Source: an uncultured Planctomycetia bacterium (GTDB lineage: Bacteria; Omnitrophota; Gorgyraeia; VGKH01; JBHPFN01). Taken from it: a stretch of DNA of 64,000 nucleotides. Both the position numbers and the translations under genes were made by a program. The notes under the pieces were generated by a model. That model saw nothing but the letters and a program-made list of their open reading frames with translations. It had not been told where the DNA came from and made no database searches. The stretch covers positions 186,558 to 250,557 of the forward strand of contig CAYOSQ010000003.1 of the NCBI GenBank assembly GCA_964406665.1. The letters are read 5' to 3'. This document shows, in pieces, positions 566 through 14,071 of the stretch (its first letter is position 1; each line of letters opens with the position of its first letter).

Positions 566-569
566 TAAG

Positions 570-700
570 TTCACCTTCGGGAGAGGGGTGAAAATCCCCG
601 CTGGTAGTTAGAGCCTACGAGCTTGCCAAAGAAATAGTGGCGGGCAGACCAAGTGAAATCCTTGGGCCAATAGTTAAAGTCTAGATGGGAGAGGGTAAGC
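570..700 (+). promoter_or_regulatory. FMN riboswitch (RFN element) aptamer
   Basis: Matches conserved RFN blocks: cttcggGAGAGGGGTGAAAATCCCCG..., AGTGAAATCC, and ...AAAGTCTAGATGGGAGAGGG. It sits upstream of ribBA. Confidence 0.8.
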
Positions 701-3128: not shown

Positions 3129-3967
3129 TGGAATTTGCAGATCTACATATTCATACCAGTTTTTCTGATAGTTCTTCAGACCCTCTAGACGTTATAAAGC
3201 GTTCAAAAGAGGCAGGATTAGCTGCTATAAGTATTACCGATCATGATTCTATCGATGGGATAAAGCTGGCGGTTCAAGAGGGCCAGAAGCAATCGATTGA
3301 AGTTATCCCAGGAATTGAAATGACAAGTGAGATCGACGAAAAAGAGATTCATATTTTAGGATATTTTGTTGATATTAATAATGAAGATTTTTTGAGTAAG
3401 TTACAAGATTTGCAGCAAATTAGGGTCGAGAGAATATTTAAGATGGTGGAGAAGTTAAAAGAGCTAGGGGTTAATAATCTTGATGCCAAAGAAGTTATAG
3501 AGTTTGCCGGAAAAGGTGCAGTGGGTAGGTTGCATTTAGCAATTATGCTGCAGAAAAAAGGTTGGATCTATTCTCCCTCGGAGGCATTCTATAAATATAT
3601 TGGAGATAAATGCCCCGCATATGTAAGTAAATTTAATCTTTCTCCTGTAGAAGTAGTAAATATTATAAAAAAATCCGGAGGCATAGCGGTTTTGGCACAT
3701 CCGCATGTTTGCACAGATGCGACTGAGCTAATAGATTCTCTGGCAAAGGTAGGTTTAAGAGGTTTAGAGGTATATTATCCTAAATATACTGCTCAGACTA
3801 TAGGAAATTATAAAGCAATCGCTGAAAAGTACGGGCTTTTGCTTACCGGTGGTTCTGATGATCACGGTTTGCAAAAAGATGATACCTTAATTGGTAAAGT
3901 GAAGATCCCTTATGAATTGGTGGAAAAATTAAAGCAGGAAAAATGTCAAAACAACAACTCTTCATGA
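3128..3967 (+). CDS. PHP-domain metal-dependent phosphoesterase
   Basis: DLHIHTSFSD...ITDHD PHP-family motifs. Confidence 0.8.
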   Translation: MEFADLHIHTSFSDSSSDPLDVIKRSKEAGLAAISITDHDSIDGIKLAVQEGQKQSIEVIPGIEMTSEIDEKEIHILGYFVDINNEDFLSKLQDLQQIRVERIFKMVEKLKELGVNNLDAKEVIEFAGKGAVGRLHLAIMLQKKGWIYSPSEAFYKYIGDKCPAYVSKFNLSPVEVVNIIKKSGGIAVLAHPHVCTDATELIDSLAKVGLRGLEVYYPKYTAQTIGNYKAIAEKYGLLLTGGSDDHGLQKDDTLIGKVKIPYELVEKLKQEKCQNNNSS

Positions 3968-5123: not shown

Positions 5124-5169
5124 CCCAGCACTTATTAAAAATTAAAAATATTAGCAAATAAGTGCTGGG
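5124..5169 (+). other. 13-bp perfect inverted repeat stem-loop in the ribD-ribE spacer
   Basis: cccagcacttatt, a 20-nt loop, then aataagtgctggg. No T-run follows. Confidence 0.6.
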
Positions 5170-5233
5170 TAAGTTCGTGAATTCAATTTACGTTCTTACG
5201 ACTTCGTCGCGTTCCGTAAAAGGACACTCACTA

Positions 5234-5824
5234 ATGTTTACAGGAATAATCGAACAATTAGGAAAAGTTAAATCAATAGAAAACTATAGCGGGATTCGCT
5301 GTCTAAGAATCGAGTCTGAAGACATTGCTTTAGATACAAAGATAGGAGACAGCATTGCTGTTAATGGTGTGTGTCTTACTGTAACAAAAATAGATGGAAA
5401 AATCCTAAGCTTTGAGGTTGTGTCCGAAACCTTAAACAATACTAATTTAAAAGACGTAAAAATTAATGATAAAGTAAACCTTGAGAGAAGCCTAAAGCTG
5501 CAAGATAAATTGGGGGGACATTTAGTAAGCGGCCACGTTGATTGTTTGGGGATTATCCGCAAGAAATTTTCCAGAAGTGGAACTGAAGTTTTCGAAATAG
5601 CTGTTCCGTCAGAGTTTTCCCGCAACATCGTGGATAAGGGTTCTGTGGCACTTGATGGGATAAGCTTGACAGTAGCTAAGGTTAGCGGTAATGTTTTATC
5701 AGTTAATGTCATTCCGCATACATTAAAAGAAACTACTTTGGGGTTAAAAAGCTGTTCTGTAAAATTGAACGTAGAATTTGATGTGATTGGCAAGTACGTT
5801 AAATCTTTTTTAAAAGATAAGTAG
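5234..5824 (+). CDS. ribE: Riboflavin synthase alpha subunit
   Basis: MFTGIIE start and duplicated lumazine-binding halves. The ORF-track start at 5162 lies inside the stem-loop, so I trimmed to the ATG at 5234. Confidence 0.9.
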   Translation: MFTGIIEQLGKVKSIENYSGIRCLRIESEDIALDTKIGDSIAVNGVCLTVTKIDGKILSFEVVSETLNNTNLKDVKINDKVNLERSLKLQDKLGGHLVSGHVDCLGIIRKKFSRSGTEVFEIAVPSEFSRNIVDKGSVALDGISLTVAKVSGNVLSVNVIPHTLKETTLGLKSCSVKLNVEFDVIGKYVKSFLKDK

Positions 5825-8557: not shown

Positions 8558-11500
8558 ATGATTATTTTTATTGCTGTTTCAGGAGTTGTCGGCTTAGGGA
8601 TAGTTGCATATGTCTTAACTATGCCCCAGAAGCCGAAAAAAAAGATAAAGCGACAATTGCCGCAGTCGCAGGTTTCTGAAGACCAAAGGATTGTCGGTTT
8701 AGAAAATAAAATTAGCAGCCTGCAGCAAGAACTGGAAAAGGCTGGTTTTGAAAATGCCAGAGCAAAAAAAGAAGCAGAAGACGCTAAGCAAAAAGAAGCT
8801 GAATTAGAGAAAGAACTTGCCAGGCGAAAAGAGTGGGTAGAGAAGGGTCAGACAGATGTAGAAGCTGCGAAGGAAAGATTGCCTGAATTAGAGGCAACTG
8901 TAAAAGAGAAAGAAAAAAGGCTTGAGCAGGAGTTTTCTAAGAATGTTTTACAGGGTAAAGAGCTGCGTCACACCCAAGAAGAGCTTGAAGCTTCCCAGAA
9001 TGAAAACAAGAAAAAAGAAGACGAAATTACAAAACTTAAAAGAGAAATAGAAGGAAAGCATAATGAAATCAAAGGCAACATTGAAGAAATTAGATCTCAG
9101 CGTAATGCAGTAGATGAGTTAAAGAAGAAACAGGAGCAAAGCGAGTGGATTTCTAAAGATGAATATAATAAACTTAAAAAACGTTACGAAGAATTGCAAC
9201 GTCAAATTTTTACGGCCAAAAGGCAGATCGAATTAAAAGAAGAAAAAATCAATGAAGTTGATCTTGAGAGGATGAAGTATAAGAGTCGACTGTTCAGCTT
9301 AGAACGAGAGACTGGAAAAGTTTCTCAAGAGCAACAGGAGCAGGTTCAAGAGGAAGAGCAGAAGCAGCAAGAGCCTAAGGAAGCTGTAGCTGAAGCTGAA
9401 GAAAAACCACCTGCTGGTCAATCAGTTGAAGAAAAGCCAGCTGGAGAAAAAACCGCTGAAGAAGCAAAGGTTGAGGAAAAGTCTCAGGTAGAAGAAGCAA
9501 AACCGACCGAAGCAAAGCCGGCCGGAGAAAAAACCGCTGAAGAAAAACCAGCTGATGAGAAACCCGCCGAAGAAACCAAGCCAGCAGAAGATGAAAAGCT
9601 ATCTGCCGATCAATCAGCTGAAGAAAAACCAGCTGAAGAGGTACAGGCTGACGAAAAGCCTCAAGTTGAAGAGGTAAAGTCTGCGGAAGAAACTCAGCCA
9701 GAAGAGAAGGTTGAGGAAGCCCCGCCTGCACCTATAAAGAAGGCATCTGATGAAGAGATAGCTGAAATAAATAAAAAATTATCCCAGGTAAGAAATATCG
9801 GAATTATGGCCCATATTGATGCCGGTAAGACAACTTTGACTGAAAGAATATTATTTTACACCGGGATTACTCATAAGATTGGCGAGGTTCATGACGGTGA
9901 AGCCAAGATGGATTGGATGAAGCAAGAGCAGGAACGCGGTATCACAATTACCTCAGCTGCTACAACATGCTATTGGAAAGATTCCCGGATAAATTTGATC
10001 GATACTCCCGGACACGTTGATTTTACTGTTGAAGTTGAGCGCAGCCTGCGTGTTTTAGACGGAGCTGTAGCAGTATTTTGTGCAGTCGGAGGAGTGGAAG
10101 CCCAGTCAGAAACAGTCTGGAGACAATCGGAAAAATATATTGTTCCTAAACTAGCATTCATAAATAAAATGGATAGAATGGGAGCAGATTTTTACAAGGT
10201 ATATAAAGATATAGAGGAAAGATTACAGGCAAATCTTGTTCCTCTGCAGATTCCCATCGGTGCAGAAGATAAATTCCGCGGCATGATTGATTTGCTTGAG
10301 ATGAAGGCAATTATTTTTGATGATGATTCTCAGGGTAAAGAATTCAAGATTGAAGAAATCCCCGAAGATCTTAAGCAGAAGGCAGATGAATATCGTCATA
10401 TTTTAGTTGAGAAGGCCTGTGAGTGTGATGATGTTTTAATGAAGAAGCATCTTGAAACAAAGGATGATATTTCTAAAGAGGAGCTTATTGCTGCAATACG
10501 TAAAGGCACGGTTGCCACAAAAGTTATCCCGCTATTGTGTGGAACAGCACTTAAGAATAAGGGCGTTCAGCAAGTTCTTGACGCTGTGATTAATTTCTTG
10601 CCGTCTCCAGCAAATCTTCCACCGGTTGAAGGAACTGACCCAGATGATGCTGAAAAAAAGATTATGAGAAAACCGGATGCCGGCGAAGCTTTTTCTGCAT
10701 TAGCCTTTAAAGTTCAGTCTGACCCGCATATCGGAAAGCTCGTTTATGTAAGAGTTTATTCAGGAATACTATCTTCAGGTACATATATTTACAATGTCAC
10801 CAAAGGCAAAAAAGAACGCGTAGGAAGAATAGTGCGTATGCATGCAAATGAGAGAAGTAACTGTGATGAAATTCATGTTGGAGAGATCGCAGCTGTTGTT
10901 GGTTTAAACTATACAGCCACCGGGGATACTCTTTGCGATGCAGATGGTCAGGTTATTCTTGAATCAATCGAGTTTCCAGAGCCGGTTGTATCATCTTGTA
11001 TTACTCCGGTAAGCCGGAAAGATTCTGATAAATTAAGCAAGGCTTTGATTAAATTGGCTGAGGAAGATCCAACGTTTACTGTTAAGACAGATCGAGATAC
11101 TAAAGAGACTATTTTGTCCGGGATGGGTGAGTTACACTTAGAAATTATTGCAGATAGACTTAAAACCGAATTTAAGGTAGAGGCAGAAATAAGCAGGCCC
11201 GAAGTTGCCTACAGAGAAACTGTTACAGTTGAAGTTACTGAAGAATATAAACACGTTAAGCAGTCAGGTGGTAGAGGTCAATATGCTCATACTGTTATGG
11301 AGATTTCTCCTGCAGAATCAGGTGCTGGGTTAGTATTTAAGGATAGCATAAAAGGTGGAGTTATTCCTAGTGGCTATATTCCTTCTTGTGAAAAAGGAGT
11401 CTGCGCTATTATGGAAAGAGGTATTTTAGCCGGATATCCTGTTGTTGATATTAATATTAATTTAATCGATGGTTCACATCATGATGTTGACTCATCGGAT

Positions 11501-11866
11501 ATTGCATTTAAGATTTGTGCTGGAGAGTGTTTCCGTGGAGGGTTTAAGAAAGCTACTCCTGTTTTGCTTGAGCCGTTCATGAAGTTAGAAGCATTAGTTC
11601 CGGAAGAATACGTAAGCAGTATCGTAGGATATATCTGCTCTAAAAGAGGAAAGATTATGAACATGGACGCTAAAGGAAATCAGAAGATAATTCATGCTGA
11701 AGCTCCTTTGGCTGAGATGTTTGGATATGCTGCATCATTTCGTTCTTTAAGTAGTGGCCGGGCAACTTGCTCTATGGAGTTTGCCAGGTATTCTCAGGTT
11801 CCTGCAGAAATTGCCAATAAGGTAATAGAAGAAAGACAAAAAAAGAAGGAAGAAAAGTCAGAATAA
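8558..11866 (+). CDS. fusA: Elongation factor G with a ~400-aa N-terminal extension (TM helix, coiled coil, acidic EKPA-rich linker)
   Basis: One uninterrupted ORF. Residues 1-21 are hydrophobic, ~40-300 are heptad-like K/E-rich, and ~300-400 are a low-complexity [12 protein letters not shown] linker. A complete EF-G follows ([28 protein letters not shown], through the C-terminus). No in-frame ATG or RBS lies at the canonical EF-G start. Confidence 0.75.
9400..9730 (+). repeat. In-frame low-complexity repeats encoding the EKPA-rich linker
   Basis: ggagaaaaaaccgctgaagaa occurs at 9443 and 9524, an 81-bp period, inside purine-rich gaa/aaa/cca codon tracts. Confidence 0.5.
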
Positions 11867-11954
11867 AAGCGCTTCCTTTTTACTGTTTCCCTGCCTTGAA
11901 AAATCCCGTTATTGTGTTATATTTGTATAGGATATAAAAAATAAAAAGCGTTTT

Positions 11955-12045
11955 GACGATAATGGCAAACCTGGAGTAATCCAGGGGCGCAAAGCTATAG
12001 GGCCCCGAATATTTTCGGGGTAGCCAGACCGCCGAAACAGAACGC
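11955..12045 (+). promoter_or_regulatory. Candidate c-di-GMP-I (GEMM) riboswitch
   Basis: GGCAAACC, a GNRA-capped hairpin (tggaGTAAtcca), GGGCGCAAAGC, and a P2 hairpin (GGGCCCCgaatattttCGGGGtaGCC) follow the order and sequence of the Vc2-type GEMM aptamer. It sits in the 5' leader of a secreted-protein gene. Confidence 0.55.
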
Positions 12046-12118
12046 CTTTTTATTTGTATTTACATTCAAGCTAAAAACCCCACCAGCCACGGAAGGGGAT
12101 CAAAATAGAAGGTGTGAG

Positions 12119-13615
12119 ATGAAGAGAGTAATGTTCATAGTTGTTTTAATGCTGCTGGTTTCTCAAGCATTTGTAACTGCAGGAGAAATTCGCGAGGTTA
12201 CTGTTGGTGCGATAAGCTATCTTAGCTTAGAATACCCTGGTAGTTTTGCTGACCGCATTACTCTTCTACAAGAGAAGATTGATAGTGCGTTGACTAATTC
12301 TGAAGGATTTAATCTAGATTTGATCTTTGAGCCAGAGTATACGTTAGTACGCAGTCATTATTCTTCGAGTGATCCTTCTATTGTTGAGATTATTGAAAAT
12401 GGACCAGGAGATTATAGTGTTTCTTCTATTGGCACATTAGAAAGTGATCTTGTGGTAGATCATATTAATACTTGGTTGATAGAGCGTGCTCAAGAGCACC
12501 ACGTTAATTTCTTTACTAATGTTCATGAAAGAGTAGAGTATGAGCCTGGACAATATGCTCATGGTATAACTGGAATAATAATTAATCATCTGGGTAATAT
12601 TGCTGGGATTAAGCGCAAGATAGAGTTTCATCCTACAGAACAAATGCAGCAGATTGTCGGACCCACAATCAATAGTTTTACGCTTTTGAATCAAGAGGGG
12701 AAGTCTTTTGTTGTGTTGCCATTTATTTGTGCAGACCTCTGGACAACCGAGACACTTAATTGGTATGCGCAGATGCTTCATGATAATAATGCTAAGCCTG
12801 CAGATATTGTAATACATTCAGTAGCAATGGGTGATTGGTTGTATCATCAATTGTTTTTCGATATTCAAGATGGAACATTTGATCCGGATAATCCTCCAGT
12901 GGATATGTATGATTGGTTTTGGAATGAAACAGTAGAGCCAACTTTAATACAACACTATATGCAACAGGAAAAATTAATAAAGTCGATAAACAGTTATTAC
13001 TTCGCAACTGATCGGGTAGGTAATGATGAATTTGGTTCAAACACCGGAGCGTTCGAATTAATTTCTTTTCCTTTGGGACCTAATCCATTTTCTTTAGAAG
13101 ACTATTTATTTACAGATGATTATCTTATTGCCAAAGTGGATATATATTATCCTTCTGGCGGTGGAGGATGTTTCTTATCTGGTACGCCGATTCTTATGGC
13201 TGACGGAACTAAGAAATCAATTGAGAAGATAAAGATAGGAGATAGGGTCTTGGCTTTTGATGAGGAGTCGGGAGATTTAAAAGAAGATGTTGTAAAAGAG
13301 TTCTTTGTGCACACTACGCATGATTATCTTTTAATCAATAATTATTTAAGAGTCACTAAGAATCATCCTGTATTTTCAAACGGAGAGTGGGTTGAGATTG
13401 GAATCTTAAAAGTAGGAGATACCTTAACAGGTTCACAAGGCAAACCTATAAAGATATCATCAATTAGAGAAATTAATCATCCGGATATCGATATCCCGAT
13501 ATATAACTTAGAAGTCAATCCGTATCATACATATATTGCTGGTGGAATTATAGCACATAATAAACCACCCAAAAAGAAAGTGGCTGATTCTTTGGCAGAT
13601 CCTCCAGAAGAATAA
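12119..13615 (+). CDS. Secreted protein with a putative CN-hydrolase-like N-domain and a C-terminal Hint (bacterial intein-like) autoprocessing domain
   Basis: It starts with a signal peptide. The C-terminal ~140 aa begin GGGG-CFLSGTPILMADG and end IIAHN, the Hint/intein N- and C-splice blocks. The N-domain carries E, K and C in the nitrilase-superfamily order (FEPEY, KRKIEFH, ICADLW), a weak assignment. Confidence 0.7.
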   Translation: MKRVMFIVVLMLLVSQAFVTAGEIREVTVGAISYLSLEYPGSFADRITLLQEKIDSALTNSEGFNLDLIFEPEYTLVRSHYSSSDPSIVEIIENGPGDYSVSSIGTLESDLVVDHINTWLIERAQEHHVNFFTNVHERVEYEPGQYAHGITGIIINHLGNIAGIKRKIEFHPTEQMQQIVGPTINSFTLLNQEGKSFVVLPFICADLWTTETLNWYAQMLHDNNAKPADIVIHSVAMGDWLYHQLFFDIQDGTFDPDNPPVDMYDWFWNETVEPTLIQHYMQQEKLIKSINSYYFATDRVGNDEFGSNTGAFELISFPLGPNPFSLEDYLFTDDYLIAKVDIYYPSGGGGCFLSGTPILMADGTKKSIEKIKIGDRVLAFDEESGDLKEDVVKEFFVHTTHDYLLINNYLRVTKNHPVFSNGEWVEIGILKVGDTLTGSQGKPIKISSIREINHPDIDIPIYNLEVNPYHTYIAGGIIAHNKPPKKKVADSLADPPEE

Positions 13616-13626
13616 AGGTGAAAAAA

Positions 13627-13776
13627 ATGAATTATTCAATTACTGATAACAAAAAATCTAATTTTGATTCTGTGCTTCGTCTGGGACAGATAACAGGTGT
13701 TATCTGTGAGAAATCCCAAAAAAGGAATATTGGAAAGATAAAGAAGTTTATTGAACACAAAGTAAGACAACTTTAG
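13627..13776 (+). CDS. Possible small basic ORF (49 aa) before the terminator
   Basis: ATG directly after an aaggtg-poly(A) tract and read-through to TAG. It is shorter than the ORF-track cutoff, with no homology support. Confidence 0.2.
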   Translation: MNYSITDNKKSNFDSVLRLGQITGVICEKSQKRNIGKIKKFIEHKVRQL

Positions 13777-13808: not shown

Positions 13809-13836
13809 GGCCCCCGCTAAAAGCGGGGCCTTTTGC
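13809..13836 (+). terminator. Rho-independent terminator
   Basis: ggcccccgc-taaaa-gcggggcc followed by ttttgcttt. Confidence 0.7.
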
Positions 13837-13993
13837 TTTATTGGGCAAAAGAAACATTAATCTTCACAAAAGCGAAATTATTGACGAAACCTACCTAAAA
13901 TGCTAAACTAATGTATTGTTAACTTCGAAAAATTCCCTATAGTTATTATTTTTAGTTAGTTAAGCCAAATATGGTTTTCTAATTTAAATATTA

Positions 13994-14071
13994 CGGGGCG
14001 TAGCGCAGTTTGGCTAGCGCGCTTCGTTCGGGACGAAGAGGTCGGCGGTTCAAGTCCGCCCGCCCCGACCA
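13994..14071 (+). tRNA. tRNA-Pro (anticodon CGG)
   Basis: Cloverleaf with cggggcg/cgccccg acceptor, anticodon stem cttcg/cgaag, loop ttCGGga, T-arm ggcggTTCAAGtccgcc, encoded CCA. Confidence 0.85.

Follow-up and report, generated by a model that had tools for sequence, protein, structure and literature searches.

A c-di-GMP-I riboswitch candidate ahead of a predicted exported nitrilase-like protein with an intein-like Hint domain in Omnitrophota

Class-I cyclic di-GMP (c-di-GMP-I or GEMM-I) riboswitches, such as Vc2 and Vc1 of Vibrio cholerae and Bc1 and Bc2 of Bacillus thuringiensis, have a two-hairpin aptamer closed by a helix, P1, with GGCAAAC and CGCAAAGC junctions, and lie in the 5' leader, and on the same strand, of genes for exported or surface proteins ("environment, membrane, motility"). 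A-type bacterial intein-like (BIL) domains, a class of Hint domain, were reportedly described by Amitai et al. in 2003 and Dassa et al. in 2004, and 2LWY is a solved example. They carry a conserved C-terminal His-Asn, are found in variable regions of nonconserved bacterial proteins, and undergo N- or C-terminal autocleavage (PMC7765530). In this study, we analyzed a 64-kb stretch of Omnitrophota DNA (contig CAYOSQ010000003.1, positions 186,558 to 250,557; the window), in which representatives of both systems meet at one gene. An open reading frame (ORF) of 498 amino acids at 12119-13615 on the + strand, made up of a signal peptide, a nitrilase-like domain, a GGGG linker, a Hint domain, and a short tail, is preceded on the same strand by a c-di-GMP-I aptamer at 11954-12036. 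The explanation that we favor, and to which we assign a probability of about 0.6, is that a c-di-GMP-I OFF switch would control a Sec-exported nitrilase-like enzyme fused to a self-processing A-type BIL Hint and a tail, and that the gene would belong to a lineage-specific set of similarly built loci.

Every part of this locus is a recognizable member of a known family, namely, the GEMM-I aptamer, the A-type BIL Hint, and the nitrilase fold, and an A-type BIL in a secreted protein is an already known situation; it is the combination that is new. A full-text literature search found no paper on the fusion of a self-processing Hint to an exported enzyme of the nitrilase superfamily, none linking c-di-GMP riboswitches to Hint-bearing exported proteins in Omnitrophota, and none on a leader whose aptamer closing helix doubles as a terminator stem. 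The domain combination, the Omnitrophota riboswitch-Hint regulon, and the use of P1 as a terminator all appear to be new. If our explanation is correct, the locus would offer a first view of c-di-GMP targets in the poorly known phylum Omnitrophota and a compact natural example of a second messenger controlling the abundance of proteins that undergo self-processing once outside the cytoplasm, and its BIL domains with nonnucleophilic +1 residues may be useful in protein engineering.

The c-di-GMP-I aptamer and its leader

An Infernal scan of the whole window against Rfam returned nine RNA elements, one of which was the match to RF01051 at 11954-12036 (+), with a score of 57.0 bits against a gathering score of 35 (E = 1.7e-8). 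This score is far beyond chance, and a fortuitous match is implausible. The alignment contains the P2 hairpin with its GUAA loop, the P3 hairpin, and both the GGCAAAC and the CGCAAAGC junction motifs. An earlier note on this DNA, written from the letters alone, had proposed a c-di-GMP-I aptamer at this position and had suggested the RF01051 scan; the elements that it named were all present, with GGCAAACC at 11964-11971, the hairpin CCUGGA-GUAA-UCCAGG at 11970-11985, GGGCGCAAAGC at 11985-11995, and a second hairpin at 12000-12025, and the scan bore the proposal out. The aptamer ends 82 nt before the start of the ORF.

In Vc2, the ligand is contacted by G20, A47, and C92 (PMC4744006). From our own mapping, read by eye on the alignment, the counterparts of these residues are G11964, A11991, and C12032, respectively, and the interhelical C-G pair is kept as C11988 and G12023. 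Compared with known c-di-GMP-I riboswitches, the leader differs in that the 11-nt tetraloop receptor of P3 (columns CUAAgg...cuAuG) is deleted in the alignment, although the P2 loop is GUAA. Some GEMM RNAs have no tetraloop receptor, and its absence is compatible with class membership. The leader also stands apart in its host phylum, Omnitrophota, and in the kind of gene that it precedes, which is a new type of target.

The GGC variant of this aptamer class (RF03167) was considered and ruled out. In a permissive rescan, this model gave the leader 54.7 bits, below its gathering score of 59; the two models are separated by one core position, CGC[A/G]AAGC, at which the leader motif CGCAAAGC has the A of RF01051, compared with the RF03167 consensus CGCGAAgC. 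Judged by its sequence, the leader RNA is a canonical class-I c-di-GMP riboswitch, for which ligand binding is predicted.

A promoter-like site at 11896-11923 (+) consists of TTGAAA, a 16-nt spacer, and TATATT with a TG extension and agrees with the consensus at 10 of 12 positions; it is a consensus match only, of a kind that a scan found to be rarer in the region than in shuffled sequences. Transcription would be expected to start near 11930. The leader fold has a z-score of -3.27, and its minimum free energy (MFE) structure pairs 11939-11958 with 12033-12055 (both +). The first of these segments, AAAUAAAAAGCGUUUUGACG, forms the 5' strand of P1 and its extension, and the second, CGAAACAGAACGCC, forms the 3' strand, which runs into U5AU3, ends in UUUUUAUUU, and is our proposed terminator element. 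Moving outward from the aptamer, P1 comprises C11957-G11958 paired with C12033-G12034, an internal loop, the helix GCGUUUUG:CAGAACGC, and a 10-bp A-U extension; the stability of the P1-extension stem alone ranges from -8.3 kcal/mol for the G/C part to -13.8 kcal/mol when the A/U extension is included. This arrangement is unlike that of known c-di-GMP-I riboswitches, as P1 is lengthened by approximately 17 bp into a U-tract and there is no discrete sequestering or terminator hairpin.

We propose that binding of c-di-GMP at the three-helix junction would stabilize P1, which would continue as an 8-bp G/C-containing helix and the 10-bp A-U extension, with its 3' strand leading straight into the U-tract. 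Ligand-bound P1 would then complete a structure resembling an intrinsic terminator, and the gene would be OFF at high c-di-GMP levels. This OFF switch is favored because the P1 extension reaches the U-tract and because related leaders carry intrinsic terminators: a classical hairpin followed by a U run is found after the aptamer in all six of the related leaders. In four of the six, the 5' strand of the terminator is complementary to a segment of the aptamer, to an extent that was matched by 2, 5, 14, and 14 of 300 shuffles, respectively; this complementarity would correspond to the usual OFF design, in which ligand-induced folding of the aptamer frees the terminator. The 3' strands of the terminators showed no complementarity to the aptamer beyond that of shuffles. 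One of these leaders (L029) has a P1 that is directly followed by U6, similar to the leader described here.

Several observations weigh against an OFF switch of this kind. The antiterminator complementarity is modest and is absent from two of the related leaders (L024 and L104), the leader itself has no separate terminator hairpin, and a terminator stem that closes an 80-nt structured insert is unusual. Furthermore, ViennaRNA predicts that the P1 extension forms without ligand; therefore, any switching would be kinetic. Finally, the segment ACGCCUUUU (12042-12050), within the 3' strand of P1, is also complementary to the Shine-Dalgarno (SD) region AGAAGGUGU (12107-12115, +), which has the SD sequence AAGGUG and lies 4 nt before the ATG, and this alternative pairing appears in folds, which suggests the opposite, ON logic.

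It can be envisaged that, as a translational ON switch, the leader would pair ACGCCUUUU with AGAAGGUGU in the absence of ligand and block initiation, whereas with c-di-GMP bound the P1 extension would form, AAAAAGCGU would sequester the anti-SD segment, and the ribosome site would be freed. The succession of anti-anti-SD, anti-SD, and SD elements is a classical three-element layout, a 9-bp anti-SD:SD helix appears in folds once the 5' strand is omitted, and c-di-GMP usually induces adhesins, pili, and matrix proteins, as with Vc1-gbpA and Bc2-cap. Nevertheless, we regard this ON switch as doubtful. The downstream-only fold is no better than shuffles (z = -0.56), two of the pairs in the anti-SD:SD helix are G-U and the loop that it closes is approximately 56 nt long, the MFE of the full leader favors the P1 extension by approximately 10 kcal/mol even without ligand, and all six related leaders have terminators rather than SD sequestration.

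A second candidate for SD sequestration, the CCCC...GGGG hairpin at 12080-12100, was rejected, since it has only 4 to 5 nt of complementarity to the SD region. A regular-expression search of the window for the c-di-GMP enzyme motifs GGDEF, EAL, HD-GYP, and PilZ found none, which is uninformative for a genome fragment.

A nitrilase-like domain joined to an intein-like Hint

The 498-amino-acid ORF is identical to a metagenomic protein (P0001) whose gene has the same neighbors on an ENA contig of 11.8 kb. Its N terminus, MKRVMFIVVLMLLVSQAFVTA followed by GE, resembles a signal peptide by eye, and a Sec-type signal peptide (MKR, a hydrophobic core, and VTA/G) can be read from the sequence at residues 1 to 21 (12119-12181, +); in the AlphaFold2 (AF2) model, this region is a low-confidence helix at residues 2 to 13. 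There follow the nitrilase-like domain (residues 22 to 346; 12182-13156, +), the GGGG linker (residues 347 to 350; 13157-13168, +), of which G350 is the -1 residue of the scissile bond, the Hint domain (131 residues, 351 to 481; 13169-13561, +), and a 17-residue tail, KPPKKKVADSLADPPEE (residues 482 to 498; 13562-13612, +), whose first residue, the +1 Lys, is not a nucleophile. The full-length AF2 model has two confident domains and a disordered linker and tail, with predicted local distance difference test (pLDDT) values of 89 to 97 across the Hint and below 50 at residues 345 to 348 and 487 to 498. The protein had been laid out in much the same way in the earlier note, and its signal peptide (again by eye), GGGG at 347 to 350, CFLSGTPILMADG from C351, and IIAHN ending at N481 were all recovered; however, the Hint does not lie at the extreme C terminus, as had been claimed, because the 17 residues of the tail come after the His-Asn.

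The nature of the N-terminal domain emerged only from its family. As a single sequence, the domain had no match in the PDB, and a family profile was needed. An exhaustive phmmer search of 1.84 billion representatives yielded 22 relatives, and in the resulting 23-sequence alignment (numbered according to the full-length protein) the columns D67, E73, G159, K167, and C204 are invariant. When compared with the PDB, the profile of this family matched yeast Nit3 (1f89; E = 9.3e-8), aliphatic amidases, and other nitrilase-superfamily structures, and the PE-Glu (PEY) and RK-Lys motifs aligned with those of Nit3. An AF2 model built from the family alignment had a pLDDT of 87.3 and a predicted TM-score (pTM) of 0.90, and the top 50 Foldseek matches to this model in the PDB were all nitrilase-fold enzymes (best E value, 5.5e-11; probability, 1.0; TM-score, approximately 0.5). 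In the model, C204 lies 37 residues beyond K167, where a strand turns into a helix.

The Pfam search for CN_hydrolase (PF00795) that the earlier note had suggested gave a divided result. A match with an E value of 0.01 or less was obtained for 18 of the 23 family members, and six of eight relatives checked singly (P0030, P0034, P0035, P0036, P0037, and P0040) exceeded the Pfam cutoff, at 24.5 to 35.1 bits, but the protein itself reached only 12.2 bits against a cutoff of 23.2 (E = 0.12; residues 118 to 218). This subthreshold score counts against a nitrilase assignment, as does the fact that the HMMER alignments to PDB chains all end before C204, so that none matches this Cys to a solved nitrilase. 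Taken together, the profile and the model support the reading of the N-terminal domain as a divergent nitrilase-superfamily domain, with a predicted alpha-beta-beta-alpha sandwich and a putative catalytic triad of Glu73 (12335-12337), Lys167 (12617-12619), and Cys204 (12728-12730; all +). The nitrilase-type Glu/Lys/Cys triad had been a guess in the earlier note, and the invariance of all three residues, the profile match to Nit3, and the exclusively nitrilase-like fold matches speak in its favor.

In comparison with the nitrilase superfamily, represented by N-carbamoylputrescine amidohydrolase, Nit3, and aliphatic amidase, the domain has the same predicted fold and a similar spacing of PE-Glu, RK-Lys, and Cys, whereas its identity to solved members is a mere 12 to 17%, the protein is predicted to be exported rather than cytoplasmic, and the family is a very small one (the 22 relatives) with PKD, Ig, dockerin, or type IX secretion system modules. 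The modules carried by the relatives are PKD, Ig, dockerin, cadherin-like, TAT-signal, and Por_Secre_tail, and because of these modules the family is considered to be extracytoplasmic. Neither of the closest relatives, P0028 (52% identical) and P0029 (41%), has a Hint.

For the Hint, PT-HINT (PF07591) was the best Pfam model at residues 351 to 481 (E = 9.2e-19; 68.5 bits against a cutoff of 27.7), and Hom_end_hint also scored above its cutoff (33.7 bits against 32.1). The closest solved chain was the Clostridium thermocellum bacterial intein-like domain 2LWY (E = 3.8e-15), followed by a Hint from a large toxin-like protein and by mini-inteins, and the region is all-beta in the AF2 model. Across 11 aligned Hints of the Omnitrophota clade to which this domain belongs, the invariant residues are Cys1 (C351), Thr and His of block B (T413 and H416, here in the sequence T413-K-N-H416), and the terminal His-Asn (H480-N481), while the +1 residue is always Lys or Arg (here Lys482); the tails that follow the C-terminal-type Hints are 11 to 19 residues long and are not conserved. 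The Hint/BIL module described in the earlier note is thus upheld by the PT-HINT score, the nearest structure, and the invariant Cys1, TxxH, and His-Asn residues.

By these sequence features, the domain resembles A-type BILs and neither inteins nor Hedgehog Hints. As in A-type BILs, it is a mini-Hint of approximately 130 residues without an endonuclease, has a Cys nucleophile, block-B TxxH, C-terminal His-Asn, and a nonnucleophilic +1 residue, and is located in variable regions of nonconserved secreted bacterial proteins. It differs from them in being almost C-terminal, with just an unconserved tail of 11 to 19 residues behind it, in belonging to a tight clade of Omnitrophota Hints whose fusion partners are enzymes, propellers, and pseudopilins, and in the presence of a c-di-GMP riboswitch upstream in approximately 40% of the assessable clade loci.

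Three other assignments were ruled out. A canonical intein does not fit the +1 Lys (Lys or Arg in the clade), the mutually unrelated hosts, or the Intein_splicing score of 29.9 bits, below its cutoff of 35.8. A Hedgehog-type Hog-Hint shares the order of an exported N-terminal cargo followed by a Hint, the first Cys of which is expected to form a Gly-Cys thioester and free the cargo, but the Hint here is bacterial, retains His-Asn, has only a 17-residue disordered tail with no adduct- or sterol-recognition region, and scores 28.3 bits with PF01079, below the cutoff of 29.7. The earlier note had drawn an analogy with Hedgehog and had suggested the PF01079 search; the analogy is appropriate for the chemistry and fails for the recognition region and the Pfam score. 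The polymorphic toxins with PT-HINT share the best Pfam model and an exported multidomain protein, but in our protein the cargo is N-terminal to the Hint, there is no toxin domain behind it (only the tail), and there is no immunity gene, as the 49-residue ORF downstream has no family match.

Relatives of the Hint and the fate of the exported protein

A whole-protein search returned 27 proteins that share only the Hint with our protein, and the named ones are mostly from Omnitrophota. The domains that accompany the clade Hint are diverse and include nitrilase-like, GH2-like, beta-helix, FG-GAP, Ig, subtilase, and prepilin-like domains. Clade Hint loci were taken from genomes and metagenomes and scanned with Rfam, and those with at least 300 nt of upstream sequence were considered assessable. 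A GEMM-I-class aptamer was found upstream in 6 of 14 assessable loci, the window included. In the other five, the aptamer is directly upstream of a pseudopilin with a Hint (L007), a subtilase with an I9 propeptide and a Hint (L024), an FG-GAP propeller with Ig and a Hint (L025), an operon with two Hint-pseudopilins (L029), and a pilin-like protein with a Hint (L032). All three assessable pseudopilin loci had an aptamer, and none of the GH2-like loci did. At a further locus (L104), an aptamer of this class lies 235 nt upstream of P0029, the Hint-less homologue of the N-terminal domain.

At the eight aptamer-negative assessable loci and at L002 and L105, no aptamer was detected even at an E value of 0.1 or less. 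Among close relatives of the N-terminal domain, the Rfam scan found no aptamer for P0028 (L002), P0033 (L105), P0035 (L106), or P0032 (L107), and 18 loci of other phyla, which have distant Hints and total 116 kb, gave no Rfam hit at all. Because aptamers are present at the clade loci and at L104 and absent at the Hints of other phyla, we infer that the riboswitch marks out a group of exported proteins specific to this lineage, many of them with a Hint.

The only clade-locus aptamers that are not ahead of the selected gene are two GGC-variant copies at the GC-rich locus L006, in a metagenome-assembled genome labeled Planctomycetales. These RF03167 matches, at 2733-2812 (63.6 bits) and 3462-3540 (63.5 bits), are approximately 730 nt apart; a small ORF lies downstream of each copy, and the L006 Hint gene is linked to neither.

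The prepilin-like Hint proteins of Omnitrophota (L007 3464-4696; L029 154-1272 and 3443-4666; L032 3548-4363; P0007, P0008, P0010, P0014, P0015, and P0017) have an N-terminal GFTLIE-type motif, a Gly- or Cys-rich stretch with the Hint behind it in the middle of the protein, and a C-terminal segment of approximately 70 to 90 residues that is conserved and ends in ...YLRN. Three further prepilin-like proteins (P0002, P0003, and P0004) contain two Hints in direct tandem, joined as ...HNKP/CLLAGTPILM... (HNKG/C in P0004), so that Cys1 of the second Hint comes after residues +1 to +3 of the first.

The breadth of these fusions raises the question of whether the Hint does anything for its host proteins. 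It may be a selfish or neutral mobile cassette, or a PT-HINT remnant that has lost its toxin, with no role in the biology of the enzyme and with an incidental riboswitch association. Proteins that are unrelated in their other domains carry Hints that are 50 to 64% identical, some Hints are in tandem, the best Pfam model is PT-HINT, and the closest homologues of the N-terminal domain, P0028 and P0029, function without a Hint. However, in more than 20 members of the clade the tails are short as a rule and not by accident, all catalytic residues are invariant, there is no toxin/immunity pair, the downstream ORF having no family match, and the riboswitch lies ahead of Hint genes at 6 of 14 assessable loci and elsewhere among the clade loci just at L006. 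We consider a cassette without function to be most improbable.

With a functional A-type BIL, the following course can be proposed. After Sec export, Cys351 would attack the carbonyl of Gly350, and this N-to-S acyl shift, to which Thr413 and His416 would contribute, would generate a thioester. Hydrolysis of the thioester would release the enzyme domain as a free nitrilase-like enzyme ending in GGGG, and cyclization of Asn481, helped by His480, would cut the chain before Lys482 and remove the tail. With Lys at +1, splicing as in canonical inteins is not expected; ligation of the BIL type, at low efficiency, is possible. Because a 17-residue tail follows the Hint and His-Asn is kept, cleavage at the C terminus or splicing of the BIL type is just as probable as simple N-terminal release. 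That His-Asn is so strictly conserved despite such tiny tails is not explained by simple release of the N-terminal domain and suggests that a C-terminal reaction matters.

If the Hint instead spliced, it would excise itself and ligate the enzyme domain to the 17-residue Lys-rich tail, giving a mature N-domain-GGGG-KPPKKKVADSLADPPEE product. The invariant His-Asn, with Lys or Arg at +1, would suit such a reaction, and the nearest solved structure is a BIL domain, 2LWY. The 2004 paper of Dassa et al., which is cited in PMC7765530, reportedly describes BIL splicing, along with autocleavage, without a C'-flanking nucleophile. Rejoining would also make sense in the prepilin-like proteins, in which the Hint is mid-protein and is followed by the C-terminal segment of approximately 70 to 90 residues. 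Splicing nonetheless seems unlikely to us. The tails of the C-terminal-type Hints, at 11 to 19 residues, are unconserved, so that the ligated product would have no evident purpose, and a search with a Hint-deleted P0010 query found Hint-containing relatives only and no Hint-less pseudopilin that would show the flanks as one fold. In addition, A-type BILs have been described as cleaving at the C terminus and as unable to ligate their flanks (PMC7765530).

A KKKV motif in a Lys/Pro-rich context is common to the tail (KPPKKKVADS..., 13562-13612) and to the C terminus of P0028 (...CQKKKVKPTPSQ...). The match is too short to judge; if it is real, splicing would recreate a P0028-like end.

A third outcome for the thioester is transfer. 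In a Hedgehog-like reaction, the Gly350 thioester would be resolved by an envelope nucleophile (a lipid, a glycan, or a peptidoglycan amine), the enzyme would become covalently anchored, and the Hint would be a general anchoring module for c-di-GMP-regulated exoproteins of Omnitrophota. We know of no bacterial precedent for such a transfer. The chemistry itself is established for Hog-Hint domains (PMC7765530). In our protein, the Hint occupies the place that anchoring or sorting modules (dockerin, PKD/Ig, and Por_Secre_tail) take in homologues of the N-terminal domain, and many exported enzymes that are unrelated to one another and have no other anchor carry the clade Hint. Against this stand the 17-residue disordered tail, which leaves no adduct-recognition region, the PF01079 score of 28.3 bits (cutoff, 29.7), and the conserved His-Asn, which the reaction does not need. 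We therefore regard transfer as very unlikely. The same low expectation applies to its broader form, in which the Hint would be the post-export module of an Omnitrophota c-di-GMP regulon that transfers enzymes, proteases, and pseudopilins onto a nucleophile of the cell envelope or of a prey surface. If envelope transfer were true, the system would be a bacterial counterpart of Hedgehog lipidation or of sortase-independent anchoring, with the amount of cargo set by c-di-GMP.

Surroundings of the gene in the window

Release of the enzyme by the BIL Hint, under an OFF switch, remains the explanation that we prefer for the locus, and the adjacent features are described here for completeness. A small ORF of 49 amino acids (13627-13776, +; 52 amino acids if initiated at the GTG at 13618) starts 3 to 12 nt past the stop codon of the Hint gene and is probably cotranscribed with it; it has no Pfam match and may fall outside the riboswitch-Hint system. 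A terminator-like hairpin, CCCCGCT-AAA-AGCGGGG followed by CCTTTTGCTT, lies at 13812-13838 (+) and is the probable end of the transcription unit, with a tRNA at 13994-14068 on its 3' side.

Nearly all of the long ORFs in the window are on the + strand, which amounts to a very strong gene-strand bias. The best named matches to the LigA protein encoded in the window are all from Candidatus Omnitrophota, with 59 to 65% identity. A flavin mononucleotide (FMN) riboswitch (RF00050) at 569-700 (+), with 88.8 bits against 66.2, is located ahead of a + strand gene block that includes a Lum_binding (riboflavin synthase-like) gene at 5162-5824. Upstream of the leader, the gene at 8558-11866 (+) encodes an elongation factor G (EF-G)-like GTPase that has all of the EF-G domains and an N-terminal extension of approximately 420 residues, composed of a hydrophobic helix, a coiled-coil-like stretch rich in K and E, and a low-complexity region rich in P, E, K, and A; an EF-G paralogue anchored in the membrane would be unusual.

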